64,000 nucleotides of DNA from an uncultured Clostridia bacterium (GTDB taxonomy: Bacteria > Bacillota > Clostridia > Christensenellales > CAMQZB01). Position 1 is the stretch's first letter. Each line of letters opens with the position of its first letter. The notes under the pieces are model-generated. The model was not told the origin of the DNA and did no database searches. It worked only from the letters and a program-made list of their open reading frames with translations. The stretch lies in NCBI GenBank assembly GCA_947039455.1, contig CAMQZB010000002.1, forward strand, positions 97,393 to 161,392. Direction: 5' to 3'. Shown one piece after another: positions 3 to 38,981 of this stretch. The position numbers and the translations under genes are program-made.

Positions 3-212
3 TTGTTGCAATACACAACACTAAATGCAGTAGCTATAAGCGAAATGATAAGAAACTGCGGCTATAAAGAACTAACCAATTATATAAATCTAGCAAAGAT
101 AAACGCTAAAGAACAAAAGGCAAACGGCGATGTGAACATATTGAAAAAAGAGCTAACAATATTAGCTAATCACATGCAAAGAATAGAAAAGGAGGGTGCA
201 AATGAGCAGTAA
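3..212 (+). CDS. Hypothetical protein, 5'-truncated by the window edge
   Basis: The open frame enters from the window start and overlaps the next gene start by 17 nt (operon-like). No recognisable motif. Confidence 0.4.
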   Translation: MLQYTTLNAVAISEMIRNCGYKELTNYINLAKINAKEQKANGDVNILKKELTILANHMQRIEKEGANEQ

Positions 213-3200
213 TGTAAAAGAGAAAATAAGAGAAATATATACAACACTTGAAGAAGTAAATCGTAATATTTCAACTGACAAGGAGCGGTTTAAAGAGTTT
301 CTAATATCATCAAGCAAAAACTACAAATGCACCTATCAACAACAATTATTGATATACAACCAGTGTCCCGAATCAACAGCCGTCCATACATTTGATGGTT
401 GGAAGAATCATTTTAAGCGTTACGTAAAAAAAGGCGCAAAAGGAATTGCCGTCCCAAACATAGAGCGAGCATACGGAAAAAACGAGTACGCCTATTTATT
501 TGATATATCCGCAACTGATCCAAGACAAAATTCAATAAACGTACCAATATGGCAAAGAGAAGACAGTGACAACACAGCAATAATCCAAACCCTTGGAAAC
601 AAATACGGAATCGATGTAGACTCAGAAGAATTCAGTGATTATACCCTTGATGAAGTAATTGAATTCGCAGTAGATATTTCTTGCCAATACAATTTTGCGG
701 ATTATATCCTAGAAAACCAACAGCAAACGGAAACGGACACAAATAACCATGCTGAAGCAACTATCTACAAAGGCGTATTAGCGACAATTTACGGAAGATT
801 GGGACTAAGCACAAACCAAATAGAGTTTGACGAATTAGAAAACTTAACTGAATCTGAATACTTCAACGTAATGGGTGCAATAAACGAAATTTCAAAAGAA
901 CTCTTACTCAATATCAGCCAAACAATCCAAACAAATCAATCAATAGCTCCGCAAACAGCGGAAGTAGAAATAACGCCAATCGAACATGATGACGAAGTGT
1001 ATTTTGAACCATTAACCAATGACAACATAAAAGCATTGAATGAGCAAATCACTTTTGAAATGCCAGTTAAAATCAAAACCGTGGAAGTGGTTGAACCTAT
1101 AAAGAAAACCGAAGTAATAAACCCAGTAATCCCACAAGTAGATTTTTACGATAAACAGCTAAAAGACGATATCGACACAAGCCAATATTTAGGACGAATT
1201 CTTGAACTAAACGGAAGAAAGTTCATAGTAGAGAAAATGGATAAAACCAATTCGTCACTTCGAGATATCACTTTCCAAGCTAACGTAGGAATACCAATCT
1301 GGAGGGGCGAACCTAGTCACTATATTGTAGATTGCATTAACGAAATTGACCGCAAAAAAAATGATAAGAAATCAAAGGGCGAGAATTTCCGTATTGAAGA
1401 TAATGCCATTGGCGTTGGAACTCCACGTGAGCGATACAAAAACAATATTGATGCAATAAAAGTATTAAAAGCATGCCAAGAAGAAAACAGCATAGCGACA
1501 AAAGTTGATCAAGAAGTATTGTCTAAATACGTTGGTTGGGGCGGATTAGCGGAAGCCTTTGACGAAACAAAATGGGGTAAAGAGTATCTTGAACTGAAAA
1601 CCTTGCTAACGGAAGACGAATACACCGCAGCAAGAGAAAGCACCTTAACCGCATTTTACACTCAACCAGTAGTAGTTAATGCAATGTATGAAGCAATCTC
1701 AAATATGGGTTTTACAAAAGGTAACATACTAGAACCGTCTTGTGGAATAGGAAATTTCATAGGACGAAAACCAACCAATCTAAATGACAGCAAAGTGTAC
1801 GGAGTGGAACTTGACAGCATTTCAGGAAGAATTTCAAAACTGTTATATCCACAAGAAAACATACAAGTCAAAGGTTTTGAACAAACGAAATTTTCAGACA
1901 ATTTCTTTGATGTAGCAATCGGAAATGTACCATTTGGAGACTTCAAAGTTCCCGATTCAAAGTATAACAAACACAACTTTCAAATTCACGATTACTTCTT
2001 TGCAAAATCACTTGATAAAGTAAGAAGTGGCGGTGTGATTGCCTTCATAACTTCACAAGGCACAATGGATAAAATGACAGCTCGTTTCAGGAAATACCTA
2101 TGCGAGAAAGCTGAATTACTTGGAGCGATAAGACTTCCTGACGATACCTTTTCAAAAAGTGCAGGAACTAAAGTAACATCAGACATTATATTTCTACAAA
2201 AAAGAGATAGACAAAACCTAGTAGAAGAAAGTTGGGTAAATACCAGTAAGTACAAAGACGAATTGCAAATGAATAACTATTTCATTGAAAACCCTGAAAT
2301 GATTTTAGGTGAAATGAAAGTAGAAAGCGGACCATTCGGACCGCAACTAAATTGTAAAGCTATAGATGGTGCAACCCTAGAAGAGCAGCTACATCAAGCA
2401 ATCAAAAACATTCATGGAAAGATTGAATTTGTTGAGCAAGAAACCGACATTGAAGATATAGACACAAGAGAAACATTGCCTGCTGACGATGCAGTAAAGA
2501 ACTTCTCATTCACAACAGTAGACGATAAAATCTTCTACAGAGAAAACAGCGTAATGGTGGAACATAAAGCACCGTTAACAACTCAAAACCGTATAAAAGG
2601 AATGATTGATCTTAGAAACATGACAAGACAATTAATCGAATACCAGTTAAATGATTATAGTGACGACCTAATCAAAGAATCTCAAAAACAGCTTGATAAA
2701 AGTTACAACACATTTACAAAAAAATACGGTTACATAAATTTAAGTGCAAATTCCAACGCGTTCAATGACGATAGCAGTTATTGTTTGTTGTGTTCACTTG
2801 AAACCCCTGATAGAGAAGAAAAAGACAAATATAATAAAGCAACTATATTCACAAAACGAACAATCAAGCCAAAAGAAGTAGTAACAAAAGTCGACACGCC
2901 AATCGAAGCATTAGTGCTGTCAGTAGCTGAAAAAACCAAAGTAGACCTAGAGTATATGTCTCAGTTAACTGATAAAACTAGCGAAGAATTAATAACCGAA
3001 CTTAGAGGCGTAATATTCAAAGAACCACGTTATGACGACAATGAAATCTATCTAACTTCAGAAGAGTATTTAAGTGGAAACGTAAGAGAAAAACTCTCAC
3101 AAGCACAGTTCTTTGCTAAAGACAATAAGCAATTTGATATCAACGTACAAGCACTAGAAAACGTAATACCAAAGGACTTAACTGCAAGTGAAATTTCAAT

Positions 3201-21424: not shown

Positions 21425-21671
21425 CCTCAACCTCAATTAAGTTATGAGAAGAACATTTTCCTTCTTTTATTTGAGAAAAAGAGCGGTCAAGCATATGAAG
21501 ATATTCAGTGTTTTTGGCTAGTTTATTAAGTGCATTGAATTGATCAACGGACAAAAGAACAACGTTGTTTTCGCCTTTGCGAGTAATGACAACTTCTTCG
21601 TTGTCTGAACAAACGATATCACAATAGCTTTTTAGATTATCTCTAACTGTTGAGTAGTTTACTGCTAACAT
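21417..21671 (-). CDS. yefM: Phd/YefM-family antitoxin
   Basis: MLAVNYSTVRDNLKSYCD...VVITRKGENNVVLLSVDQFNAL. RBS AGGAGG. Confidence 0.85.
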   Translation of the reverse strand: MLAVNYSTVRDNLKSYCDIVCSDNEEVVITRKGENNVVLLSVDQFNALNKLAKNTEYLHMLDRSFSQIKEGKCSSHNLIEVEDE

Positions 21672-21686
21672 ATTTACCTCCTAATC

Positions 21687-21702
21687 GTACAATATATTGT
21701 AC
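21687..21702. promoter_or_regulatory. Probable YefM-YoeB operator: perfect 16-bp palindrome GTACAATATATTGTAC
   Basis: It lies between the minus-strand TATAAT box and the yefM RBS. It contains the TGTACA-type half-sites known from yefM-yoeB operators. Confidence 0.5.
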
Positions 21703-21763
21703 AACTATTATAATCTATTATATGCGAAAAGTCAATAAAAATTTTAAAATAAGGAAAAAATTT

Positions 21764-24700
21764 ATGAAAAATATAAAATCTGAAAATTATTTAACCATAA
21801 AAATCAAAGTAATATTGCTGCTAGTAGCGTTGTTGCTTATTAGTACATTGCAAGTAACTACAGCGCATGCTGATGTTGTTGAGCTTGGCCATGAGACATT
21901 TGCTAATGAAACTTGTCCTGAGTGTTTGGGGAATGAAACGGTTACTTGTACGCGGTGTGACGGAAGTGGAAAAACCACTTGTTATAAGTGTAAAGGCACT
22001 GGCGATGTTGAGGGTAAATGTGATGCGTGTAATGGTCGCGGTGAAGTTTATGGATACTTTAGCTGTAGCGATTGTGACGGCACCGGCGAATGCCAACTGT
22101 GTCCATCAAGCGGAGTTGGTCCATGCGTTTGCAATCCTCGCGGAGTATGCAATACGTGTGACGGAAAAGGAAAAGAATGGAGATATAGTCCATGCGAAAA
22201 ATGTGACGCGGACGGTATTTTAGAAGGTAGTGCATCATGCGAAACTTGTAGCGGTCGCGGTAATGTAACATGTTCAAGGTGCGATGGGCTAGAAGTTGAA
22301 ATGTGTCCAACATGTGACGGAGATGGTGAAGTATACGTGCCTGAAACTCCATCAAATTTGAAAATCAATTACACAAATTACGAGGGCGGAACGAAAGCTA
22401 ATCCGACGCAAATTTACTTTGACAAAGATGTTTCGATATCTTGGAACATAGTAGATAAATGCAGAATTACAATAACAGGCGGACCACTCCAAGAGCAATA
22501 TGATAATACTTCAACAGTAACTAAAACCACTCTTGAAGCGAAAGAAAACGGATATATAGTCTATACCGTTAAATCGGAAAACAAAGAAAGTATCCAAGGT
22601 GAAAGCGGAGCAAAGGCGTTGTATTACGAAATAATAATTGATACAAAAGCACCGATATTTGAAGTAGTTGCAGTAGGTTCGAATGATGTATTGTGGATTG
22701 GTTCGGAAAAGCAATTTCCATTAGTGATATTGCCTGAAGAAGTGTTTTTAGTAAGAGTAAAAGACGATAGCGATTACACGATAACATACATGGACGCAAC
22801 AACTACAACGGAGTACAAAGGAGAGAACATTACCGCAAAAAACAAGTTGGTTTACAAGTTTGTAGCAAAAGATAAGTGTGGAAACACATCAACTATATTA
22901 ATAGAGAGTAACTATCCTGCGCCATCAATTATAGTAGACGGAATACATTTAGATTGGGGCGAAACGGAAGAACAAGTAAAGACTATAAGATATAAAAATG
23001 ACGTTGAAATCTCATGGCAAAAAACCTTTAATGGAAAGATATTTATATCATCAAATAAAGGTGAAATCGAGCTTAATGGAGGTGCTGACGGGGAGTATCT
23101 ATTAACAACTGACGAAAATTCTGAAACTACATATTCTATAAAAACGGTTAATGGAGATAAAGACGAATACAAGTATTACAAGATAGTTATTGACAAAGAA
23201 AAGCCTACTGAAAACTACGATAGATTAATTGAAAACGCTGACTTTCACAAGACTAAATATTATAAGTTCAATAACATGTATTACTTTGAATATGAGAATG
23301 CTGAACAAGCGTATGTCGACTACACAATTAGTAATAACGCAACTAAACATTACTGGGATGATGTGGATATTTTCGCTGAAGTGCTAGCGGATGGCGAAGT
23401 TGCAGTTAAAGGTGATTACTATAGATATCGTTACGGATCAGGGCAGTATAAATGCTATTTTGAGTATGATAATTTGATAGCTGAACTGAAAACGCAATAT
23501 AGCGAAATAGCGGTGATTGAATACTACAAAGGCAACAGTATCAGTGCAAATGCGCAATATGAAGATATGCAAGACAACGTTATTTCAGTAGGTGAAATTC
23601 AAGGGCTTTTAGTTAAAGATTTTGAATTTGAAGAAGGGAGTAGCATAACCGCGACAGTTCAAAAGCACGGAACGAATGAATCAATCACAGCGATTTACGG
23701 TGAGAGTTTGAAAGAGCAACTAAAGAACGTTCAAGGTTTATACGAGATAATTGAAACGGACGAAGTAGGAAATGAATTTATTTATTACGTATGTTTTGAT
23801 TCGGAAATTGAAGATTTTATTATCAATGTAGACAACTATGAAGAAGAAAAAATTGATGTGAGAATACCATCAAAAGATTTACATCAAGGCGTGTTTTATT
23901 ATAATTCATTTCAAATAAATGATGTAAGAGATTTAGATAGAGAATCGATAGTAAAAGTTACTGGGAATGACGGCGTTGCTTACTATAATTTGACACTTGA
24001 TACTATACCCAAGTTCGAAGAAGTAGGCACTTATGAAGTGGAAGTTTATGACCGATCATCTAACCGAATTTTCTTTGCGGTACACATTGGAACGGAAAGT
24101 GCCACGGTGAATTTTAATGAAAGATACAAGACTTTTGATATTGAAATTTCAGTACCAACATTAACTAAATATACGAAAATAGAAATACTAAGAAATGGCG
24201 AGTTATTAACATATGATGATGAAAATAAACCAATTACAAACAGCGTATATCAATATAGTTTTTCGCAAGAAGGGAAGTATGAAGTGATAGTGGTTGATAG
24301 TTTTGGGATAACTCATTCATATACTTATAGCTATGTTGCTGGCAAAGTAAGTTTTGAAGAAATAAATGGTATTTCAAACGGTGTAGCAAATGACGATGTG
24401 GTTTTGAAATATCACAAAGACAAAGGTACATTATTAATCACAAAAAATGGAGAGCCTTACATCTTTTCTGAAACGGTTGATACTGAAAATATAGCAACAG
24501 TAATTATTGATTATTCACCAATAAATGACGGAACTTATAAAGCTAAACTTAAGAGCAATTACAGCGACTATAGCGAATTTATCAATGAAGTAAATTTCAC
24601 GCTTAAAGTAGATAATTCTCCGAATCTTGTGGGAGTGAAAAATAATGGAGCAACGGAATATTCAGTATATCTCACGTGGAATGATGACCTAAACGCAACA

Positions 24701-26023
24701 GCAACTTATAGAAAAGACAGCGAAGCAATGCAAGCCTATAAGAAGAATCAAAAGCTGTATGAAACAGGCGAATATTTAGTAATAATTACAGCCCCAAACG
24801 GTGAGAGTTGGGTATACTCTTTCGTAATTTTATTAAATACAGAATACACCATAAAAGTAAATGATAGATACGTAAACAGTGTTGATAGTTTTGTTAATGG
24901 CTCAGTAAAATTTGATACAACAGATAAAGATTTAATACTGCTAGTAAAGACTGAAAAAGGAGTGAAGTTAGATATCAAATGGGGACAAGCTATCGTTAGC
25001 GAAGGTAAGTACGTGGTGACGGTAATCAAGAGTGGCGGTATTGATGTAATACGTTTTGAAATTGATAATACACCGCCAAAGGGGGTGCTTGATGGCGTAG
25101 GAAATGGTGGTAAAACGCAAAACGAAGTATCACTCAATTGGGCTGATCCAAGTACTACCGCAACAATAACTAAAGACGATGACAAACCTATTAAGTACAA
25201 GAAAAACGAAAAAATCACGGAGGGCGGAAAGTATACAATTGCATTGAACGACATAGCAAACAACGAAACCCTTTACACCTTTGAAATCGATCGCCAAGTT
25301 GATGCGGAAGTAAACATAGAAAACGGATTAATAACTAATTCCACAGTAGAACTGAAAACAAACGAAGATAATCTTGATATCAAAGTATTACTAAATAATG
25401 AAGAAATTGAAACGCCAGAAGAATTCATATTTGATAAAAACGGCAGTTATGATATTACTATTACTGACGAATTTAAAAACAGTAAAACTATGAATTTCAC
25501 AATAGTAAGCACACCGTTGAAATCACTTAACTATCAATTACCACAAGGATATACATGGGATAGCGTAATTACTGAAAGCGAAATAGTGGAAGATATTGAA
25601 GATAGCGAAATTAATTTAAATAAAGACGGTATTTACTCAATCACCTATGTGAATAAGGATAAAGGCATTCGACAACAGCTGAATGTGGTAATCGATACTA
25701 TCCCACCAAAGGCAACTATTGTTGGAGTAACAAATGGCGGTTCTACTGAAGAACTTGTAATCGTGCTTTGTGATGAAGAAAACGTAACAACGAAAGCTAT
25801 TCATGAGGGCAGAAACATTAATTATAAATTAGGCAAAGAGATCACTGGTTCAGGAGATTATGTCGTTGAAGTGTATGACCAAGCAGGAAATAAAACTGAG
25901 TTTACTTTTAATAGAATTTGGAAGATAAACACAGCAGGCAAAATAGCGGTTGTGGTTATGGGATTAACGGCTATTGGAATTAGTATTGACCTAATTAGAA
26001 AACGCAAAGTAAAGAGCAATTAA
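21764..26023 (+). CDS. Large secreted, C-terminally membrane-anchored surface protein with an N-terminal array of DnaJ-type C..C.G.G zinc-finger repeats and repeated Ig-like modules
   Basis: Signal peptide KVILLLVALLLISTLQVTTAHA. About 11 C..C motifs lie between residues ~60 and 220. Recurring modules include DNTPPKGVLDGVGNGGKTQNEVSLNW and DTIPPKATIVGVTNGGSTEE. C-terminal TM helix and RKRKVKSN. The ATG at 21764 with an AAGGA RBS is preferred over the track start, which overlaps yefM. Confidence 0.7.
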   Translation: MKNIKSENYLTIKIKVILLLVALLLISTLQVTTAHADVVELGHETFANETCPECLGNETVTCTRCDGSGKTTCYKCKGTGDVEGKCDACNGRGEVYGYFSCSDCDGTGECQLCPSSGVGPCVCNPRGVCNTCDGKGKEWRYSPCEKCDADGILEGSASCETCSGRGNVTCSRCDGLEVEMCPTCDGDGEVYVPETPSNLKINYTNYEGGTKANPTQIYFDKDVSISWNIVDKCRITITGGPLQEQYDNTSTVTKTTLEAKENGYIVYTVKSENKESIQGESGAKALYYEIIIDTKAPIFEVVAVGSNDVLWIGSEKQFPLVILPEEVFLVRVKDDSDYTITYMDATTTTEYKGENITAKNKLVYKFVAKDKCGNTSTILIESNYPAPSIIVDGIHLDWGETEEQVKTIRYKNDVEISWQKTFNGKIFISSNKGEIELNGGADGEYLLTTDENSETTYSIKTVNGDKDEYKYYKIVIDKEKPTENYDRLIENADFHKTKYYKFNNMYYFEYENAEQAYVDYTISNNATKHYWDDVDIFAEVLADGEVAVKGDYYRYRYGSGQYKCYFEYDNLIAELKTQYSEIAVIEYYKGNSISANAQYEDMQDNVISVGEIQGLLVKDFEFEEGSSITATVQKHGTNESITAIYGESLKEQLKNVQGLYEIIETDEVGNEFIYYVCFDSEIEDFIINVDNYEEEKIDVRIPSKDLHQGVFYYNSFQINDVRDLDRESIVKVTGNDGVAYYNLTLDTIPKFEEVGTYEVEVYDRSSNRIFFAVHIGTESATVNFNERYKTFDIEISVPTLTKYTKIEILRNGELLTYDDENKPITNSVYQYSFSQEGKYEVIVVDSFGITHSYTYSYVAGKVSFEEINGISNGVANDDVVLKYHKDKGTLLITKNGEPYIFSETVDTENIATVIIDYSPINDGTYKAKLKSNYSDYSEFINEVNFTLKVDNSPNLVGVKNNGATEYSVYLTWNDDLNATATYRKDSEAMQAYKKNQKLYETGEYLVIITAPNGESWVYSFVILLNTEYTIKVNDRYVNSVDSFVNGSVKFDTTDKDLILLVKTEKGVKLDIKWGQAIVSEGKYVVTVIKSGGIDVIRFEIDNTPPKGVLDGVGNGGKTQNEVSLNWADPSTTATITKDDDKPIKYKKNEKITEGGKYTIALNDIANNETLYTFEIDRQVDAEVNIENGLITNSTVELKTNEDNLDIKVLLNNEEIETPEEFIFDKNGSYDITITDEFKNSKTMNFTIVSTPLKSLNYQLPQGYTWDSVITESEIVEDIEDSEINLNKDGIYSITYVNKDKGIRQQLNVVIDTIPPKATIVGVTNGGSTEELVIVLCDEENVTTKAIHEGRNINYKLGKEITGSGDYVVEVYDQAGNKTEFTFNRIWKINTAGKIAVVVMGLTAIGISIDLIRKRKVKSN

Positions 26024-26427: not shown

Positions 26428-29400
26428 GTGAAAAGTAAATTGAAATTTGCAGTTGTGATATTACTAATTGGAATGATAATTGCGACTATGTTTTCAGGAA
26501 GCACCTTAGCGTTAGCAGAACCGATAAATGATACATTTGACGGAAACTATTATCCAATGGACGATGCACTAACAGCAAAAGGCCCAAAGAAGTATAGATA
26601 CAAATACACAATACCAACCCAAGTAATTCAGCTAGAAACAAAATACCGATATAGATCATCAAGTTCAGGGGATGTAGACTATGAATACCTAACGCCAATT
26701 GGATTGTATATAGGCGATATTGCAATCCCAATAGGAGATGTGTCAAACTCACTTAAAATGCAAGAAAGCGGAAAAGGGTATGAGATGTATACCCCAACCA
26801 ATGGCTATAGTGCATTAACTGTAGTGAAAAGCGAAAGAGAAGTGTATGAGAACAGCAGCGGAAGTATCAGACGGTACGCAACAACATATAGAATACCTGA
26901 AATTACTTTCTATTCTGATACATTGCAAAGCGGCGCGTTTCTTACAAGGCACGTAAAAGACGACGATGACAGTTCTGGCGTAAGTTATTCATATCAATTC
27001 ACGCCAATGTCATATGACAATCCATCAACCCTATCATATTCAGTAGTAGATTTAGGCGCTTCAATTTGTATTGATAACAATCTAATAGAGGGCAGCGAGA
27101 ATGAAGCCTATCCAAAAACCATAGACTTTGACGATGTAAAAACCTTGTCATGGAGTGATGAATTAAGCCAAAAAGTAACAGTAAAAAAAGACGGCGTACT
27201 AGTAGGTCAATACATAGGTGCTGAGCAATCTGAACTTATAATCAAAGAATCAGGAGTTTATGATATTACTTGTGAGAACAACGGTTCAAAGTTCTATTAT
27301 AAATTCATAGTTAAACTAAAAGAGAAGCCCCCAATAGAATCAGGGGGTGACGGCTCTATTCATGTATTTGGTTCATTAAACATAGGTGGCAGTACGGTAG
27401 AAATACCCACCAATGCAAACATAGGGGGAAATACAGCAACCTATAATGGATTAGACAAAATAACATTCGAAAACTCATCAACCGATCCGAAATACAATAT
27501 CACATGGATAGAAACAACGGACAAAACTGGTACTAAGTATCTAATAGCGGATAGAAACCTACTTATAAATATATCATGGCAAGACTTGCAAAAGCAAAAT
27601 CTAATACATGGAACGGAAGTATATATAGACGGATTGAAATATACGCTTATGATACCAAGCAACAGCATGTGGGACGAGCTAGTCAGCAAAGTAGGAAGTG
27701 AAGAAATGTGGAACTACAATCTCCCTTCAGTAATGTCAGATATCATAACAGAAGGGGACGGCGGTTCGAAAACATCTATTAGAGGGGGAAACGTATTAGA
27801 AGATAGTGGGTTGATAGACCAATTTACCGCTAATTCAAGTTTTGGATTTAGACCAGTATTAGTTGCCAAGATGATAGGCGGCGGAAGCGGCGATGAAACC
27901 GATCCTGAAGAAGCACGTGGAATTATTGAAGAAGCAATCTTAGGTTCAATCGAAAAACTGTTTTTGCTTATTAGTGTACAACTATGCGGACTTATTGATT
28001 TGACTATTGGATTGTTTAAACAGCTAGTAGGACTTGAAAATGTAAACATAAATGGCGAAGCAAATCTAATCATGTTTTTCCTAGAAGATAACTCAATAAG
28101 AAACACATTAATAATCACAATGCTAATCGGCGTAGCAATGCTATTCGCCTTTACAGTAGTACAGTTTGTGCGTTCAACTAACGCAAGTGATTTAGGTTCG
28201 GAAAACAGCAAAATGCACCCTAAATACATATTCGAAAGTTTCATAAAATCCCTTTTCAACATAATAGTAATCCCCATGGCGGTGATAATGTTGATATCAT
28301 GTTCAAACATCGTAATGGGGCAACTTAACAAAGCAATGGAAGTTGGCGTAATAGGAAATTCCGAAGAATCAATAAGTTATGGCGGTCAAATGTTGCTGAT
28401 AATGGCAACTACAAATGAAGACAAAGCGCGATTACTAGACTTTGAAGGTATTGACGAAAACAACTTTCACGAGAGCTATGAATCAACTGGCGGAGACGAA
28501 AAGTATTTCCCAAACGGACAAATAACTAACCTAGTACCAAAAGGCGAAAACTGTATTTTATATGCACAAGACAGCATTTATCCGTCACTAACCTATATGG
28601 ATTTAGACAATTGGCTGTCGGAAGAAGGGTGTTATTACATACCCACCCAAAGGCTGAATATATTCGTAGGTTTCGTGGGTTCGGTATCCTTGTTAGTGGT
28701 TTTGGTGCTATGTTCATTTATGTTCGTAAAAAGACTATTTGACATAGTGTTACTGTATCTAGTTTCACCGTTTTTAATAGCAACAATGCCAATCGATGAC
28801 GGAAAGAGATTTAGCGCATGGCGAGATATGATGTTATCAAAAGTACTGTCCGCCTATGCAATTATTATCACAATAAATTTGTATCTAATGATCATACCAA
28901 AATTAACAATCAATCCAGGAATAACATTCTTTAGCGGTTCACAAAATTCAATAGCAAACGCAACAGTGCAATTGTTATTTGTAATCGGAGGAGCATTTGC
29001 ATTGAATGGTTCAAACTTGCTTTTCAGTCAGTTAATAGGATCAGGCACACAAGAATTTCAGCAAGGCACAATGTCAAGTATGGCAATGCAAAGCATGGTG
29101 CGAGCAGGTGCAGGAATTGCGGTTGGCGGTATTGGAGTAGCAAAAGCGTTGGGTGGCGGAGCAATCCGACACGGAGTAGGAACAGCTTTCGGCGGTGCTG
29201 GATATGCAAAGAATGCGTTTATGCAAACTGGCATGGGCAAAGGCGTAGGCAACTGGGCAAGCAGTATTAAAAACCGTCCAGAAAAATCACCTGCCGATTA
29301 CGAAAAGATGACACCAAAGCAGCAAGATAAGCATGACGGAAAGAAAGCTAAACAAGAGCAACAAAGAGTAGTACAAGATAACAAGCAAATCAGAACTGAA

Positions 29401-29601
29401 ATGGGAATGAGTACATCAAGCAACAAAGGAATCAACGTAGCAAGAACTATGGGACGAATTGGCGCTGATGTAATGAGAAACGGAATCAGTTCAGTGCCGT
29501 CAAGTATCAAGAATAACTATGCACAGCTAGGTCGTGAGGAGTATGTAAGAAAGAAAATTCCGGACTACAAAAGCCCAACGGACACTAGCACAAAAAAATA
29601 G
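26428..29601 (+). CDS. Large polytopic membrane protein (VirB6/TrbL-like channel component) with an N-terminal exported domain and a Gly-rich C-terminal region
   Basis: GTG start after AGGAGG. It has a signal peptide, a ~480-aa extracytoplasmic part, multiple TM helices and a GAGIAVGGIGVAKALGGGA segment. Its synteny with VirB4 supports the call. Confidence 0.45.
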   Translation: MKSKLKFAVVILLIGMIIATMFSGSTLALAEPINDTFDGNYYPMDDALTAKGPKKYRYKYTIPTQVIQLETKYRYRSSSSGDVDYEYLTPIGLYIGDIAIPIGDVSNSLKMQESGKGYEMYTPTNGYSALTVVKSEREVYENSSGSIRRYATTYRIPEITFYSDTLQSGAFLTRHVKDDDDSSGVSYSYQFTPMSYDNPSTLSYSVVDLGASICIDNNLIEGSENEAYPKTIDFDDVKTLSWSDELSQKVTVKKDGVLVGQYIGAEQSELIIKESGVYDITCENNGSKFYYKFIVKLKEKPPIESGGDGSIHVFGSLNIGGSTVEIPTNANIGGNTATYNGLDKITFENSSTDPKYNITWIETTDKTGTKYLIADRNLLINISWQDLQKQNLIHGTEVYIDGLKYTLMIPSNSMWDELVSKVGSEEMWNYNLPSVMSDIITEGDGGSKTSIRGGNVLEDSGLIDQFTANSSFGFRPVLVAKMIGGGSGDETDPEEARGIIEEAILGSIEKLFLLISVQLCGLIDLTIGLFKQLVGLENVNINGEANLIMFFLEDNSIRNTLIITMLIGVAMLFAFTVVQFVRSTNASDLGSENSKMHPKYIFESFIKSLFNIIVIPMAVIMLISCSNIVMGQLNKAMEVGVIGNSEESISYGGQMLLIMATTNEDKARLLDFEGIDENNFHESYESTGGDEKYFPNGQITNLVPKGENCILYAQDSIYPSLTYMDLDNWLSEEGCYYIPTQRLNIFVGFVGSVSLLVVLVLCSFMFVKRLFDIVLLYLVSPFLIATMPIDDGKRFSAWRDMMLSKVLSAYAIIITINLYLMIIPKLTINPGITFFSGSQNSIANATVQLLFVIGGAFALNGSNLLFSQLIGSGTQEFQQGTMSSMAMQSMVRAGAGIAVGGIGVAKALGGGAIRHGVGTAFGGAGYAKNAFMQTGMGKGVGNWASSIKNRPEKSPADYEKMTPKQQDKHDGKKAKQEQQRVVQDNKQIRTEMGMSTSSNKGINVARTMGRIGADVMRNGISSVPSSIKNNYAQLGREEYVRKKIPDYKSPTDTSTKK

Positions 29602-33307: not shown

Positions 33308-33685
33308 ATGTTAAGATTTGAAGGCAAAGGCAGAGTAGTAAAAGATTTTGATGTGGAGACAATCAAAACAAAAGCAGGAAAAGAAATTGCAAAAGCAGTG
33401 GTAGTGGTCGCGTTCAACAACGGAACCGAAAAAGCTACAGGAGAAGACAAACCATCTACATTCTTACAAGTAGAGCTATGGGACAAACTAGCAACAAGAG
33501 CAGAAAACTTCGCCACAAAAGGCAGTCTAGTAGACATCAAAGGCGGCGTATTGCCAAACAATTACGAAAAAGACGGCAAAACAATCTACGGTTTCAAATA
33601 CGTAGCCAACGACATAAACGTCTACGCCACAAAAACCACCGACAACACAAAATCCCCCCAATCCAAAGAAGACATGCCATTCTAA
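33308..33685 (+). CDS. ssb: Single-stranded DNA-binding protein
   Basis: 125 aa with an OB-fold-like core (FLQVELWDKLAENF..KGSLVDIKG) and an acidic C-terminal tip EDMPF. Confidence 0.8.
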   Translation: MLRFEGKGRVVKDFDVETIKTKAGKEIAKAVVVVAFNNGTEKATGEDKPSTFLQVELWDKLATRAENFATKGSLVDIKGGVLPNNYEKDGKTIYGFKYVANDINVYATKTTDNTKSPQSKEDMPF

Positions 33686-33689
33686 CTAA
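33647..33689 (+). repeat. Direct repeat copy 1 (43 bp, last 12 codons and stop of ssb)
   Basis: ACAAAATCCCCCCAATCCAAAGAAGACATGCCATTCTAACTAA. It matches 36953-36995 at 42 of 43 positions. Confidence 0.95.
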
Positions 33690-33694
33690 CAAAA

Positions 33695-33731
33695 GAGCCG
33701 ACAATATCACTCGATATTATCGGTTCTTTTT
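33695..33731 (+). terminator. Rho-independent terminator after ssb
   Basis: GAGCCGACAATATC-ACTC-GATATTATCGGTTC followed by TTTTT. Confidence 0.7.
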
Positions 33732-33885
33732 ATTATGGTTAAATTTTTTCGTTTTATGTATACTTTTAGTAGACAAGCAATAATAAAATAGTATATAGTG
33801 TATACTATAAGTAGCAATTAATGCCTAAACCCATTAAATCAAATATGTGCTAGAATATATTTATCAAGAAATTAGGAGAAAAAAT

Positions 33886-35778
33886 ATGAAAAGTAAAGAA
33901 TATAATGAGATTGCCTCAACTAAGCAATTTGGTAAATATTTAAGCCAAATTATTAATGAAATGGGATGCAGTACAAGAAAATTCGCAATGGATTTTTCGG
34001 AGTATTGCGAATTGGACAGTGAAAGTGAATTAAAAAGCGTTTACAAATGGTGTCAAGGCAGAGGTATGCCAAGTGTGTTTAAACTATATAAACTTTCCCG
34101 ATTCATTGGCAAAAGCATGGAGAATTTAATTACTGCAGGAGACGACTGTGACATTGCTCCAAACTATCCAACTGTTCTAGAGATTGCTTACGACAAAGAA
34201 AATTGGAGTAAGAAACTTATGGAAGTAAAGAACCGTACTAATGACTTTGACGATTTTTGTTCTGGACAGGACCGTTGCCATAAAGAAATGATTGACTACG
34301 CCATGGAAGCGAAAAATGTTGAATTAGTAAAACACATAATAGACTCTAAAGATATAACATGTTATATGAATAATGAATATATGAAATATTTAATCACTAT
34401 GGAAGAAAATGAATTTGTTAAGCCGGAAATAAAGAAATATATGTCATCGTATATCACTGAAGTCAATGACGGAAATTGGCAACTAAAACAAGATGTTTTT
34501 AAATCTGATTCATCATTATTTAATGATTCAAAACAGCTAAACCCAGAATATAGAATTAATCCAAATATGAAGGAATTTCTTGAAGATATGGTTGAGAGAA
34601 ATAAGATTGATGATTTAATTACTGCATTTAACTTAATTCAAAATTATTATGATACATTAATTAGTGAAATTGAGTCGGAAGAAAATTTTGACAAAAGACC
34701 GTTTTGTTGCGAAGGTGGTTGGGATTCTAAAGTATATTCTAAAATTGAAGGTAGTTCTAAGCGTATAGTATTAGGTAATCTTGTTGAATTTACAATATGT
34801 TTTAGTGAAAGTGTGGCAAAACTAGAAAATAACGAAGTGAATAGCGCGTATGCTGATCTCACGGAAACTGCTGAAACGATTAAAACATGTTGTATGGAAA
34901 GTCGAGCGAATAAAATTACTTCAATGAACATGAGAATGCAAGATGATAATATTAATAACGCAATCATGTTTAGCCGTGAAAATGAAATTTATTATATGTC
35001 AATGCCATTACTAAATTCAATTGCAGGACAAAAAGATTTGATTCAGAAATTTAAAACTATAAAAAAGAACTATTTTTCTGGTGTAATGTTTGAAGTTGAT
35101 ATCCCAAAAGAAAAAAGTTTTGTAAACAAAAATCTTAAGTGCAGAATTCTAGGGTATGATTTTGATGTAGATCAAATGGACTCACTGTTGATTAAATATA
35201 AACAAGATATTAATATGAAATATTTAGAATTAATACAAAAACTGAATGAAGACGGCTATGATATATGTGCAGAAGATTTTAAACTTACTCCATATATTGA
35301 TGAATCAAGTGTAGTAATGAAATTGATTGAGAAAGGTCTTGGTGATAGTTATGCAGAAGTAATGGATCGCATATTGCTAAATCGTGGAATATACCAAGTA
35401 AACGACATGAATATTATGAACATTATATCAATGATTAAAGATTCTGGAGGTATAGCTATATTAGCTTGTCCGTTATTAGCATATAAACATAATGAGGAAA
35501 TAGAATTATCTACTGAAGAAGTGACTGAATTTATTGATATACTAAATGATCGTCAAACACTAGAGCATTTTACTGGGTGGGAAATTCGTTACAATAATTA
35601 TGTAGTTGAAGGCGAACAATATGATGAAATAATTAAAAAATTAAATGGACGAAAAAGAAAAGTGTCAATTGGTTATGATACAAACATGGTTTTAAATGAT
35701 GTAGTTATTGATGAAAAAGATTATAAGAGCTTAGCTGATACTTTGAAATCAAAAGCAAATAAGGTGAGAACATGCTAA
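33886..35778 (+). CDS. HTH-domain protein with a C-terminal degenerate PHP (TrpH/YciV-like) domain; first gene of the viperin cassette
   Basis: N-terminal XRE-like HTH (KQFGKYLSQIINEMGCSTRKFAMDF). The C-terminal segments CRILGYDFD...YLELIQKLNEDGYDI...IKDSGGIAILACPLLAY resemble PHP motifs (H.lG.., GG.a.lAHP) with His replaced by Cys. RBS AGGAGA before the ATG at 33886. Confidence 0.45.
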   Translation: MKSKEYNEIASTKQFGKYLSQIINEMGCSTRKFAMDFSEYCELDSESELKSVYKWCQGRGMPSVFKLYKLSRFIGKSMENLITAGDDCDIAPNYPTVLEIAYDKENWSKKLMEVKNRTNDFDDFCSGQDRCHKEMIDYAMEAKNVELVKHIIDSKDITCYMNNEYMKYLITMEENEFVKPEIKKYMSSYITEVNDGNWQLKQDVFKSDSSLFNDSKQLNPEYRINPNMKEFLEDMVERNKIDDLITAFNLIQNYYDTLISEIESEENFDKRPFCCEGGWDSKVYSKIEGSSKRIVLGNLVEFTICFSESVAKLENNEVNSAYADLTETAETIKTCCMESRANKITSMNMRMQDDNINNAIMFSRENEIYYMSMPLLNSIAGQKDLIQKFKTIKKNYFSGVMFEVDIPKEKSFVNKNLKCRILGYDFDVDQMDSLLIKYKQDINMKYLELIQKLNEDGYDICAEDFKLTPYIDESSVVMKLIEKGLGDSYAEVMDRILLNRGIYQVNDMNIMNIISMIKDSGGIAILACPLLAYKHNEEIELSTEEVTEFIDILNDRQTLEHFTGWEIRYNNYVVEGEQYDEIIKKLNGRKRKVSIGYDTNMVLNDVVIDEKDYKSLADTLKSKANKVRTC

Positions 35779-36602
35779 ATGTAGTAAATTTACATATTAC
35801 GGAAAGATGTATGTTCAGCTGTAAGAATTGTTTTGCAATATTCCATAAAAATAAAGAGTTAGAATTAAGTGAGTGGAAACTTGTAGTAGATAATATAAAC
35901 CATTATTTCAAAACAGCTGGAATTAAAAATGGTCGTATCAATTTAGCAGGCGGAGAGCTATTAATGGTAAGTTTCGTTGTTGAACTAATAACATATATTA
36001 AAAGCGTAGGACTTGATGTTTCGATAATAACAAACGGCGTAATGTTGAATAAACAATTAATTGATGATGTAGCAGAACACATTTCAATGATTGGAATTTC
36101 AGTAGATTCTATTTCTAAAGATACCAATATCAAAATAGGTAGATGTGATTGCGATAACAACGTACTCAACGTGGATCAGTTAATCGAAATTGCAAAATAC
36201 ATAAAAAGCAAGGGTATAAAATTAAAGATCAATTCAGTAATCACAAAACTGAATTTAGATGAAAATTTAAACGAATTTTACAATGAAATAAATCCTGATA
36301 GGATAAAGATTCTTCAAATGCGAGTTATGGGCGAAATGAATAAAAATAGTGAAAACTTAGCAATATCTGAATCAGAGTTCCAAACATATTGTGAAAAAAT
36401 AAATGCAAAAAACCTAGTTATAGAAACTAGTGAGGATATGGAAGATTCTTATTACATAGTAAATCCTAAAGGCGAATTGCAACGAAATTCAAACAATAAA
36501 TTGACTACAGTAGGTAATTTGTTAGAAGAAAATTTCAACGACATGATAAAAGACTGTAAAATAAATGCAGACAAAGTAGAAAAAAGATACAAAGGAGAAT
36601 AA
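35772..36602 (+). CDS. Prokaryotic viperin (pVip) radical-SAM enzyme
   Basis: Aligns by eye along its length with viperin: VNLHITERCMFSCKNCFA (C...C..C), INLAGGE, VSIITNG, GISVDS...IGR, KINSVITKLN, NPDRIKILQ, DSYYIV. ATGCTAA overlap with the upstream gene. Confidence 0.85.
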   Translation: MLNVVNLHITERCMFSCKNCFAIFHKNKELELSEWKLVVDNINHYFKTAGIKNGRINLAGGELLMVSFVVELITYIKSVGLDVSIITNGVMLNKQLIDDVAEHISMIGISVDSISKDTNIKIGRCDCDNNVLNVDQLIEIAKYIKSKGIKLKINSVITKLNLDENLNEFYNEINPDRIKILQMRVMGEMNKNSENLAISESEFQTYCEKINAKNLVIETSEDMEDSYYIVNPKGELQRNSNNKLTTVGNLLEENFNDMIKDCKINADKVEKRYKGE

Positions 36603-36606
36603 TCAA

Positions 36607-36933
36607 ATGGAAATAAATCTAGAATTAGGTTACCCAACTGTAGCAGAAGCTATGACGAATTTAGAAGGGTACATTAAAACATACAAACAACGTAATGAGA
36701 AAGTTGCAATCATAATCCACGGATACGGAAGCAGCGGTAAAGGTGGCGCTATAAGAACTAAAACCAGACAATGGTTAAAAGCTCAAGTTAACAGCAATAA
36801 AATCAAAGGAGTAGTACATGGCGAAGACTTTGGAATGTTCGATGATACATCAAGAACGATTAATGCAATTGATAAAGATGCCAAAAAATACTACGGAAAA
36901 TCAAACCAAGGTGTAACATTAGTATTAATATAA
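36607..36933 (+). CDS. Smr-domain-like small protein
   Basis: INLELGYPTVAEAMTNLEGYI...VAIIIHGYGSSGKGGAIRTKTRQWL...GVTLVLI follows the Smr pattern. The canonical LDLHG motif is replaced by INLELG. Confidence 0.55.
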   Translation: MEINLELGYPTVAEAMTNLEGYIKTYKQRNEKVAIIIHGYGSSGKGGAIRTKTRQWLKAQVNSNKIKGVVHGEDFGMFDDTSRTINAIDKDAKKYYGKSNQGVTLVLI

Positions 36934-36952: not shown

Positions 36953-36995
36953 ACAAAATTCCCCCAATCCAAAGAAGACATGCCATTCTAACTAA
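36953..36995 (+). repeat. Direct repeat copy 2 (orphan duplicate of the ssb 3' end)
   Basis: ACAAAATTCCCCCAATCCAAAGAAGACATGCCATTCTAACTAA. It is not attached to an ORF, because stop codons lie upstream. Confidence 0.95.
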
Positions 36996-37020
36996 TTAGT
37001 AGTGGCAATACATAACAAAA

Positions 37021-37057
37021 AATAGCCTACTAACTTCGTGTAAGTTAGTAGGCTATT
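37021..37057. terminator. Bidirectional terminator hairpin, member of a repeated hairpin family
   Basis: AATAGCCTACTAACTT-CGTG-TAAGTTAGTAGGCTATT. A near-identical copy lies at 38250-38287. Confidence 0.7.
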
Positions 37058-37154
37058 AAAATTCTAAGTAGTCATATTAAATAATGGGTTAGACAAAGAA
37101 ACATATATATTTTCTTAAGAATTACACATTGTCATTTGTGATTAAATAAAAGCA

Positions 37155-38075
37155 CTAAGCAAGATTATCAATAGCATATTGAGCTTCTTCCGCAGTAAAT
37201 TTCTCACCATATTCAGATATTAATTGATCATATATGGAATTTTTAGACATACTCATAGTGTCGGAATAATTTTTTGCTTTTGCCAAAGCATTCTCATTCC
37301 AATCAGCAACGATATTGTCAACAGCATATTGAGCTTCTGCTGCAGTAAATTGCTCACCATACTCCGAGATTAATTGGTCATATATGGATTTTTTAGACAT
37401 ATGCATAGTGTCAGAATAATTTTCAGCTTTTGCTAAAGCGTTTTCATTCCAATTGGCAACGATATTGTCAATAGCATATTGCGCTGCTTCAGGTTCAAAA
37501 TCTTCACCATATTCAGAAATTAGTTGATTATATATACTTATTTTAGACATATGCATTAAATCAGAATAAGTTTTTGCTTTCTTTAATGCATTTTTAAATT
37601 CAATATTAGGTGCTTTTCCTAAAGAATATGTAACTGTAATTTTCTTACCTTCTAATATTTTGTCATCAATTGTTTTGCTTTGTTTCAAAAACAATCCTTT
37701 TGCTATAGTGTCAGAATGGTCGTATTCAAAATTACAAACTATTTTGTTTGCTTTAGCCCAAACTTCAATTTCATTTAATTCCATTGAACTAAAATCTATT
37801 ATTGTAACATAATTTTGGCTGTCGATAGGTGGAGTTGTTTCAGTTTGTTCTTGTCCATCCAAATTATTATTTGGAAGTTCACCTCCGCTAAACGATGAAG
37901 TAATAATTGCTATAGCCAATAGACCAAAAATGACAGATAATATTATTTTCTTACCAATGCTAAAATGTTTTTTTCTAACCCACATAAAAGGTATTCCTAC
38001 ATAAGGGACTATTATGAGTAGTATCCAAAAAAACCAGGTTTTGTCGTACCAAAGTACTTTATTTGTTTTTTCCAT
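37155..38075 (-). CDS. Membrane-anchored Ltp-family (host surface-exposed lipoprotein-like) protein with three tandem Ltp repeats
   Basis: Three ~50-aa repeats NYSDTMHMSKKSIYDQLISEYGEQFTAAEAQYAVDNIVADWNENALAKAK. N-terminal TM helices. Start at MEKTNK (38075) after AGGAGGA. Confidence 0.7.
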   Translation of the reverse strand: MEKTNKVLWYDKTWFFWILLIIVPYVGIPFMWVRKKHFSIGKKIILSVIFGLLAIAIITSSFSGGELPNNNLDGQEQTETTPPIDSQNYVTIIDFSSMELNEIEVWAKANKIVCNFEYDHSDTIAKGLFLKQSKTIDDKILEGKKITVTYSLGKAPNIEFKNALKKAKTYSDLMHMSKISIYNQLISEYGEDFEPEAAQYAIDNIVANWNENALAKAENYSDTMHMSKKSIYDQLISEYGEQFTAAEAQYAVDNIVADWNENALAKAKNYSDTMSMSKNSIYDQLISEYGEKFTAEEAQYAIDNLA

Positions 38076-38249
38076 TTTTTTCCTCCTAAATATTTCTCCA
38101 TGAGTATACATGCAATTTCGATAATTGTCAAGTTGAGGTGACTGTAATAAATTAATTAAATATAATTAGTTATGTTTAAACTTTTAAACCATCAAAATTA
38201 AATAAAAGTATATAAACAATTTGCTGAAATTGCAAACATAACAAGAATA

Positions 38250-38287
38250 AATAGCCAACTAACTTCATTCTAAGTTAGTTGGCTATT
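38250..38287. terminator. Terminator hairpin, second copy of the repeated family
   Basis: AATAGCCAACTAACTT-CATTC-TAAGTTAGTTGGCTATT, downstream of cat on the minus strand. Confidence 0.7.
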
Positions 38288-38339
38288 TGAATTTTTTGTG
38301 ATAAAAACTGTAAACTCTATAAATTATGCTAATACAATA

Positions 38340-38981
38340 TTATAGTTTGAAATCATTGATCCAATTTTGAAAATGCTCAATAAATTGTGAAAGGTGAAAC
38401 CCATCACAGACAGCATGGTGAACTTGAACTGCTAGAGGAAGCAATGTTTTTCCATTGCTATCGTAGTATTTTCCGATAGTAAATATTGGTGGTAAACAGT
38501 CGAATCCATTTTGTAAATTTAAATTAAATCCAGTAAAACTCGTCCATGGAATACATGAAACGTTGAAACAGTTTTTGTTAATTATAGGTTTTGAATTTTT
38601 GAAATCACTTTTGAATTGAATCATATCGCCAGTATAATTTTTCATGAAAGAATCGAAATTATCGCTAAATTCGGTCCAAACATTAGTTATAGTCTCTGAA
38701 TCAGCGTGAAACAAGGTGTAGCAAGGATTTGAAAAGCTGTAATAACCGATATTGTTTTCTTCGTCAATGTCCATACGAAATTCTTTATGTTGATTTACAA
38801 TGCAAGATAAACCGTACAAGATTGAAGGAAAAAACTTCAACTTATGATGATGTATTTCTTTTAAAAAATCAGTGATATCCAAATTTATAGTCATACTATA
38901 AGTGCAAGGGACTGAATTGAAATAATGAGTGTATGAATCTTTTCTATTCCAAGTAGGCATATCGATTTTATTAAATACCAT
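38340..38981 (-). CDS. cat: Type A chloramphenicol O-acetyltransferase
   Basis: 213 aa. WNRK..Y.HYF..VPCTYSMT, FNVS.IPW.SF.GFNLN and the catalytic VHHAVCDGFH are present. RBS AGGAGA. Confidence 0.95.
   Translation of the reverse strand: MVFNKIDMPTWNRKDSYTHYFNSVPCTYSMTINLDITDFLKEIHHHKLKFFPSILYGLSCIVNQHKEFRMDIDEENNIGYYSFSNPCYTLFHADSETITNVWTEFSDNFDSFMKNYTGDMIQFKSDFKNSKPIINKNCFNVSCIPWTSFTGFNLNLQNGFDCLPPIFTIGKYYDSNGKTLLPLAVQVHHAVCDGFHLSQFIEHFQNWINDFKL

Follow-up and report, generated by a model that had tools for sequence, protein, structure and literature searches.

The 64,000-nucleotide stretch of DNA analysed here (the window) comes from contig CAMQZB010000002.1 of an uncultured Clostridia bacterium. 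It carries three closely packed genes on its forward strand, which encode a large protein with an N-terminal helix-turn-helix (HTH) domain and a C-terminal PHP-like region (protein A), a prokaryotic viperin (pVip) and a small stand-alone protein of the Smr type (Table 1). The end of gene A and the ATG of the pVip gene overlap by 7 nucleotides (ATGCTAA), 4 nucleotides separate the pVip stop from the Smr start, and each of the three genes is preceded by a Shine–Dalgarno sequence. An alternative GTG start for gene A at position 33847 would lengthen its product by 13 residues, to 643. A preliminary description of this DNA had placed a 630-residue reading frame across the pVip start and the Smr gene 4 nucleotides beyond pVip, and its coordinates and spacing are correct. 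The hairpins at 33698–33723 and 37021–37057 are the only terminators in the operon region, and no second strong plus-strand promoter-like site was found between the three genes. Given the tight packing, the flanking hairpins and the lone good promoter-like site, the three genes look like a single transcription unit.

Table 1. Features of the viperin locus and its flanks, in window coordinates, and domains of protein A, in residues
Feature	Position	Strand	Remarks
43-nucleotide direct repeat, left copy	33647..33689	+	final part of the SSB gene with the stop codon
Hairpin terminator 3' of the SSB gene	33698..33723	+	inverted repeat 33691-33730, then a T-run; upstream edge of the operon
Candidate sigma-70-type promoter	33770..33799	+	TAGACA-18-TATAGT; best plus-strand match of the region, 10/12; consensus match
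Candidate operator	33788..33808	.	inverted repeat ATAGTATA-N5-TATACTAT covering the -10 box
Protein A gene	33886..35778	+	630 aa; ATG preceded by AGGAGA
pVip gene	35772..36602	+	276 aa
Smr gene (stand-alone Smr-domain protein)	36607..36933	+	108 aa; AAGGAG ahead of the start; motifs EINLELG...IIHGYGSSGKGGAIR...NQGVT
43-nucleotide direct repeat, right copy	36953..36995	+	42/43 identical; 20 nucleotides past the Smr stop
Bidirectional terminator closing the operon	37021..37057	both	perfect 16-bp hairpin
Ltp-type surface lipoprotein (superinfection-exclusion family)	37155-38111	-	three 150-nucleotide tandem repeats
Chloramphenicol acetyltransferase (CAT)	38340-38981	-	
Protein A, predicted XRE-type HTH	aa ~10-80		
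Protein A, ankyrin-like helical repeats	aa ~80-165		
Protein A, helical linker	aa ~170-350		low confidence
Protein A, TrpH/RNase AM-type PHP fold	aa ~350-600		degenerate

The middle gene encodes a full-length prokaryotic viperin, as the preliminary description had called it. Residues 4–274 match the NCBIfam equivalog model NF038283 at 245.5 bits, above its cut-off of 180 (E = 5.8e-73), and the protein also matches the PADLOC pVip model PDLC02903 (E = 8.8e-71). In an alignment of 23 sequences, the radical-SAM CxxxCxxC cysteines (C13, C17 and C20) and the GGE motif that binds S-adenosylmethionine (G60-G61-E62) are invariant, as is the C-terminal R272-Y273 pair in 23 relatives. Of 54 columns with strong conservation, the window protein departs from 4; its relatives depart from 0–7. 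Enzymes of this family are radical-SAM dehydratases that convert nucleoside triphosphates (NTPs) into 3'-deoxy-3',4'-didehydro-NTP (ddhNTP) chain terminators, which halt phage transcription. The window pVip resembles the known members (NF038283; PADLOC pVip 'not associated with kinases') in its full-length match, cysteine triad and RY ending, and likewise lies in a mobile element, among its cargo and defence genes. It differs from them in sitting inside a translationally coupled three-gene operon, in two substitutions (N14M, at the near-invariant asparagine of CNYxC, and P63L, at the proline of GGEP) and in its divergence, no other pVip in a collection of 5.8 billion proteins being more than 49% identical to it. 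A single-protein query returned no close pVip relatives in GTDB, and an alignment query was needed.

The third gene encodes a protein that matches Pfam PF01713 at 36.4 bits (gathering score 25.7), with the match beginning at profile position 7. Its AlphaFold2 (AF2) model is confident, with a predicted local distance difference test (pLDDT) score of 92.8. The best matches of this model in the PDB are the Smr domains of MutS2, followed by YdaL/SmrA (2zqe, with a target-normalized template-modelling (TM) score of 0.78, 4och and 3qd7), and MutS2 and SmrB on collided ribosomes (8qpp and 7qgr) stand lower in the list. The Smr-like assignment made previously is therefore sound, and the histidine of the LDLHG motif is indeed missing, as had been claimed: the N-terminal motif reads E-I-N-L-E-L-G, with NLE at the place of the canonical DLH. 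The HGxG histidine is kept, in an H38-G39-Y40-G41 motif that is invariant among 27 sequences and aligns with the HGKG of MutS2.

These small Smr proteins form a distinct family of stand-alone proteins of around 110 residues, with 396 occurrences in the genomes of 185,579 GTDB species, mostly Clostridia. The family consensus is EINLExGxPTVxEA ... IIHGYGSSGKGGAIR ... NxGVTxV, in which N4 is kept in at least 90% of sequences and a glutamate (or lysine) occupies the canonical histidine position. The window protein shares its fold, the HGxG histidine and a C-terminal G-x-T-x-V strand with SmrA/YdaL (3qd7), SmrB (7qgr) and MutS2 (2zqe and 4och), but differs in its NLE motif and in a four-residue insertion in the glycine-rich loop (HGYGSSGKGG versus HGKGTG). 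SmrB carries an N-terminal ribosome-binding extension, whereas the 108 residues of the window protein leave no room for extra domains of that kind. PADLOC gave a weak match to mad4 (E = 9e-4), and a literature search on Smr in phage defence returned nothing useful. At other loci, the small Smr family is coupled to an OLD-type ATPase–Toprim protein (L002, 854-3182), to AAA+/M41-like ATPases (L003 and L018), to a protein of around 200 residues with a PcrA/UvrD Tudor domain (L007 and L009) and to an N6/N4 DNA methylase (L061).

The pairing of pVip with Smr recurs outside the window, at six loci with adjacent genes and two with fusions. Among 48 GTDB pVip loci, two have an Smr-family gene downstream of pVip with a 4-nucleotide overlap (L099 and L107), and two encode pVip and Smr fused in a 399-residue protein (L096 and L097). 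Among 80 metagenome loci, Smr lies directly downstream of pVip in four (L138, L140, L141 and L148). At 396 occurrences in 185,579 species genomes, the Smr family is too sparse for chance adjacency to pVip to be more than negligible; the two-component link between pVip and Smr is real. In a neighbour-joining tree of 126 pVips, all the other Smr-linked pVips fall into one clade of 16 leaves, and the window pVip lies outside it, grouping with helicase-associated pVips. The window Smr is 40–47% identical to the other pVip-linked Smrs, compared with 81% to that of L001 and 60% to that of L002. Together, the separate pVip clade and these identities argue that the pairing arose at least twice, and the window pair is, as judged by these comparisons, independent in origin from the other linked pairs. 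The Smr of L001, the closest relative, seemed at first sight to stand alone and was considered as a counter-example; this was overturned by a remnant of around 50 nucleotides of a viperin 3' end (..KVEKRYKGE) ahead of it, at 1369-1423. L001 is thus a decayed copy of the same cassette, in which the viperin and the upstream gene have been deleted and Smr is intact. At a further locus (L008, 3322-6327), a distant viperin-like radical-SAM protein is followed by a fusion of an AAA_17 kinase-like domain with a phosphoribosyltransferase and then by a relative of the window Smr from its own family, an arrangement that could represent a further defence operon based on nucleotide modification.

Protein A is best described, from its sequence and predicted structure, as an HTH–repeat–pseudo-PHP protein. 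A k-mer-seeded homologue search recovered only protein A itself, and an exhaustive phmmer search of 1.8 billion representative proteins gave 33 matches, among them three long relatives: P0122 (E = 9e-48), P0123 (E = 2e-28) and P0124. The AF2 model is confident at residues 10–165 and 350–570 and poor between them. Pfam HTH_3 matches protein A weakly (E = 0.02; 15.4 bits against a cut-off of 23), but the homologues P0124 and P0131 match HTH_3, the set of phmmer matches to residues ~10–165 carries HTH_3 together with ankyrin repeats, and Foldseek aligned the N-terminal model (pLDDT >90) with ClgR, C.BclI and C.AhdI, all with a probability of 1.00. These repressor matches favour the HTH reading of the preliminary description. 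For the C-terminal part, Pfam PHP has no match on protein A itself; phmmer ties residues ~360–590 to proteins of ~260–300 residues that carry Pfam PHP, and Foldseek matched 3e0f (4.9e-8), 9etk (1.6e-7), 2yb1 (1.1e-5) and 7ug9 (8.5e-5), again all with a probability of 1.00.

The same description had proposed a PHP fold with replaced metal-ligand histidines, and the replacements that it named, in CRILGY and ILACP, are real; the degeneration is wider than it had claimed. In an alignment with genuine PHP proteins, HxH is replaced by RMQ, DHD by PLL, the glutamate by M401, and the two single histidines by R420 (in CRILGY) and C528 (in ILACP), and the final DxH reads D598/N600. Every metal-ligand histidine is therefore lost, and D598 is the sole residue retained among the aligned metal-binding motifs, which marks the PHP part as a pseudoenzyme rather than a catalytic member of the family. 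Protein A thus has in common with TrpH/YciV (RNase AM) and related PHP proteins (9etk, 7ug9, 3e0f and 2yb1) the fold of its C-terminal ~250 residues, including a helical insertion, but unlike them keeps a single metal-motif residue and adds an N-terminal HTH and repeats. The PHP sites of P0122 and P0123 are also largely degenerate, and both retain the first histidine of HxH and the motif-III glutamate. PADLOC gave weak matches of protein A to MAD1 and PD-Lambda-2_A; a literature search on MADS returned plant MADS-box papers only.

Other pVips have partners of other kinds, and in this pVip clade most of the neighbours are nucleic-acid enzymes. The usual occupant of the upstream slot is a large RNase III-domain protein. 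A protein of around 780 residues with an RNase III domain, its catalytic residues intact, lies upstream of pVip at L090-L094, L096, L097, L099, L107, L118 and L137-L142. At L105 this protein is fused to pVip, and at L017 it occurs with Smr in the absence of pVip. A DUF2325-like extension is also found fused to pVip in the place of Smr. The layout that recurs places a large protein first, pVip second and a small, nuclease-like C-terminal module last (Smr, DUF2325 or a fusion of either to pVip). These RNase III operons, from metagenome-assembled genomes of Christensenellales and Clostridia, have the same three-slot layout and the same Smr family as the window, but the large protein of the window is unrelated, with an HTH and a dead PHP domain, and its pVip and Smr belong to other subclades. 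Homology between protein A and the RNase III-domain partners was rejected (hmmsearch found nothing and hhalign gave a probability of 1%). In further loci, a small HNH nuclease gene overlaps the pVip stop (L108-L113 and L124), or a DEDDh 3'-5' exonuclease gene lies 3' of pVip (L103, 5838-6932; L110, 853-2034). A superfamily 1 (AAA_11/AAA_12) helicase accompanies pVip together with conserved proteins of 153 and ~480 residues at L088, L095, L098, L216, L218 and L219, and this is the context of the closest relatives of the window pVip. PADLOC 2.0 has no models for the RNase III-domain, HNH, 250-residue, L008 or L012 partners, no published description of an RNase III + pVip + Smr/DUF2325 system was found, and a search for literature on DUF2325 gave nothing useful.

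The preliminary description had pVips occurring as single genes or with nucleotide kinases, a picture that holds in part: kinases adjoin 12% of bacterial viperins (bioRxiv 10.1101/2023.09.13.557418). It is incomplete, in that the RNase genes hicA and relE have already been reported next to pVips, with no obvious antitoxin, and cooperation in defence has been proposed (Gerdes 2024, mBio, PMC10865869). In those loci, as in the window, a small nuclease-type gene directly adjoins pVip; Smr, however, is a third, unrelated fold, and its link to pVip reaches gene fusions and a large third partner. Our literature search found no paper combining viperin with 'Smr domain'. Smr as a partner of pVip is unreported, and so is the one-off, regulator-like pseudo-PHP protein.

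The three genes lie in a mobile element. Upstream of the cassette are genes for a TraG/VirB4-type ATPase, an NrS-1-like primase-polymerase and a single-stranded DNA-binding protein (SSB); downstream, on the opposite strand, the Ltp-type lipoprotein and CAT genes are followed by genes for a Tag glycosylase and a WYL regulator. The G+C content of the cassette is around 30%, compared with 35–38% in the backbone just upstream, and the 43-nucleotide direct repeats bracket it exactly. On the basis of this low G+C content and the bracketing repeats, we read the cassette as cargo acquired by a conjugative element. The repeats look like att-type sites or recombination scars of cargo insertion; the cassette has no integrase. 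An empty site at the 3' end of ssb had no exact match in GTDB genomes, and no near-identical DNA was found in plasmid and phage collections. IMG/VR viral contigs contained no Smr of the window family and no close pVip, which leaves a phage origin unsupported. Perfect hairpins that are related to one another (AATAGCCTACTAACTT / AAGTTAGTAGGCTATT, and a variant of it) at 37014-37063 and 38243-38293 part the Smr, Ltp and CAT genes, and hairpins of this type also flank the Smr gene of L001 (1211-1290 and 1781-1823); these hairpins could be shared terminators that work in both directions, or could mark the boundaries of cassettes. Further upstream, ahead of the TraG/VirB4-like gene, two open reading frames (21650-26023, 1,457 residues, and 26428-29601, 1,057 residues) have essentially no Pfam match and presumably encode conjugation or surface proteins of the element.

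On balance, we lean modestly towards reading the locus as a cargo defence operon of a conjugative element, in which protein A would be the sensor or regulator, pVip the synthase and Smr a co-acting nuclease. A single promoter and a single terminator would serve the whole operon. From its family membership, pVip would be the core effector, synthesizing ddhNTP chain terminators that halt phage transcription. Smr would be a co-effector, most likely with nuclease activity against the RNA (or DNA) of stalled transcription or translation complexes. Chain-terminated, stop-less transcripts would bring RNA polymerase and ribosomes to a halt, and known Smr nucleases take such stalled machinery as their substrate. 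Collided ribosomes are the targets of the Smr domains in SmrB and MutS2, and we infer both the target and the activity of the window protein by analogy with these domains. Protein A would act as a one-component regulator: its XRE-type HTH, bound to TAGTATA-N5-TATACTA over the -10 box, would repress the operon, and binding of a signal (protein or nucleotide) by the ankyrin-like and dead PHP modules would lift the repression. The pattern TAGTATA-N(3-26)-TATACTA, which was defined only after the window and L084 sites were both known, occurs once in the 64 kb against 0.01 expected. The half-sites are also present upstream of the gene for the protein A homologue P0122 (L084, 5870-5909). Binding of protein A to the repeat at 33788-33808, and its role as an autoregulating sensor or regulator, are predictions from these sequence features.

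Several observations weigh against this reading. Bernheim et al. reportedly found in 2021 that single pVip genes suffice for defence in assays. The evidence for the promoter is no more than a consensus match, and that for the operator no more than a pattern match. The nuclease activity of Smr is uncertain, because the DxH part of its active site is replaced by NLE; the first histidine is likewise missing from Thermus MutS2 (LDLRG), a protein that nevertheless has nuclease activity, so the substitution is no proof of inactivity. An adjacent pVip was found at none of the best 80 of the 396 places in the Smr scan, and the neighbours of Smr are diverse (OLD-type ATPase, AAA+/M41 protein, methylase, GATase and Tudor-domain protein). 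With partners this varied, the small Smr family looks like a promiscuous module that different conflict systems share.

The combination of an HTH/pseudo-PHP protein, pVip and Smr is, moreover, not a conserved three-gene system. The exact trio was found on four near-identical metagenome contigs only, including the 186-kb scaffold_21 of ENA ERZ28620936. A candidate analogue, L011 (HTH + HTH + Smr), was rejected, its middle gene encoding another HTH protein. The preliminary description had envisaged a fixed operon, and the part of that claim that stands is the linkage of pVip with Smr, which are adjacent or fused elsewhere; the fixed DNA-binding PHP-like partner does not. P0122 and P0123 (L084 and L085/L086) are encoded in defence islands that have neither pVip nor Smr, next to genes for a large DEAD/UvrD-type helicase, a histidine-kinase-type ATPase, Fic, type I restriction-modification and PIN-domain proteins. 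Small open reading frames downstream of protein A relatives (157 and 141 residues) are mutually unrelated and have no Pfam matches. When a profile of the PHP region was run on the neighbours of around 130 other pVip loci, no PHP-like neighbour was found, and pVip–Smr modules occur without protein A.

Because the two relatives examined lack pVip and Smr, protein A could be a separate unit. The locus would then consist of two juxtaposed units, with gene A an independent defence or regulatory gene that by chance lies ahead of a pVip–Smr module. We consider this unlikely, although the distribution of protein A just described gives it substance. It sits poorly with the 7-nucleotide overlap of the A stop and the pVip start, and with the lack of a terminator or good promoter between the two genes. 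At L100, furthermore, a 390-residue homologue of the HTH/ankyrin-like module of protein A overlaps the pVip start; this N-terminal module is the only part of protein A that recurs beside a pVip. The RNase III-type systems also have a large protein in the slot of protein A, in one case fused to pVip (L105).

Even if the three genes form one cargo defence operon, as we favour, Smr might serve the host rather than attack the phage. Smr, and perhaps protein A, would in that case be a self-protection or repair factor that clears host polymerases and ribosomes stalled by ddh-terminated transcripts, cutting the cost of pVip. The collided-ribosome structures among the fold matches of the window Smr (8qpp and 7qgr) fit such a role, as do the DEDDh 3'-5' exonucleases that come after pVip in L103 and L110 and the Tudor domain borne by the partner of Smr in L007; the PcrA/UvrD Tudor domain binds RNA polymerase. 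We nevertheless hold this to be quite improbable: the window protein is without the ribosome-binding extension of SmrB, and the family also pairs with defence ATPases, such as the OLD-type protein of L002, which fits an effector role. That Smr is an unrelated passenger or housekeeping gene whose position after pVip has no functional meaning is very improbable, since the family, widespread as it is and with many different neighbours, is joined to pVip by fusions (L096 and L097), 4-nucleotide overlaps at several loci and two independent origins, and a viperin remnant lies upstream of the closest homologue of the window Smr.

Prokaryotic viperins have so far been catalogued and tested as one-gene systems, with at most a kinase added, whereas here, across a whole viperin clade, overlaps and fusions tie the viperin to partners of the nuclease type and to large sensor-like proteins. 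If these partners matter, the 'make a chain terminator' model is incomplete, and a second step may follow, in which stalled ribosomes or the terminated transcripts are dealt with, or a control may keep self-poisoning in check; the question of an accessory step extends to animal viperin. Very tentatively, many Firmicute-type viperins might be the cores of multi-protein, RNA-directed machines in which chain termination is coupled to a dedicated nuclease, and in which the dead PHP domain and HTH of protein A would sense a nucleotide signal that switches the operon. If so, the nuclease (Smr, HNH, DEDDh, RNase III-type, RelE or HicA) would recognize stalled transcription–translation complexes and destroy or resolve them, and protein A could be responding to the ddh-nucleotide or to the 5' end of an RNA. 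The dead PHP domain of protein A is a candidate nucleotide sensor. What accessory proteins do for viperin can be tested directly with the pVip–Smr fusions and with the three-gene systems of the RNase III type.

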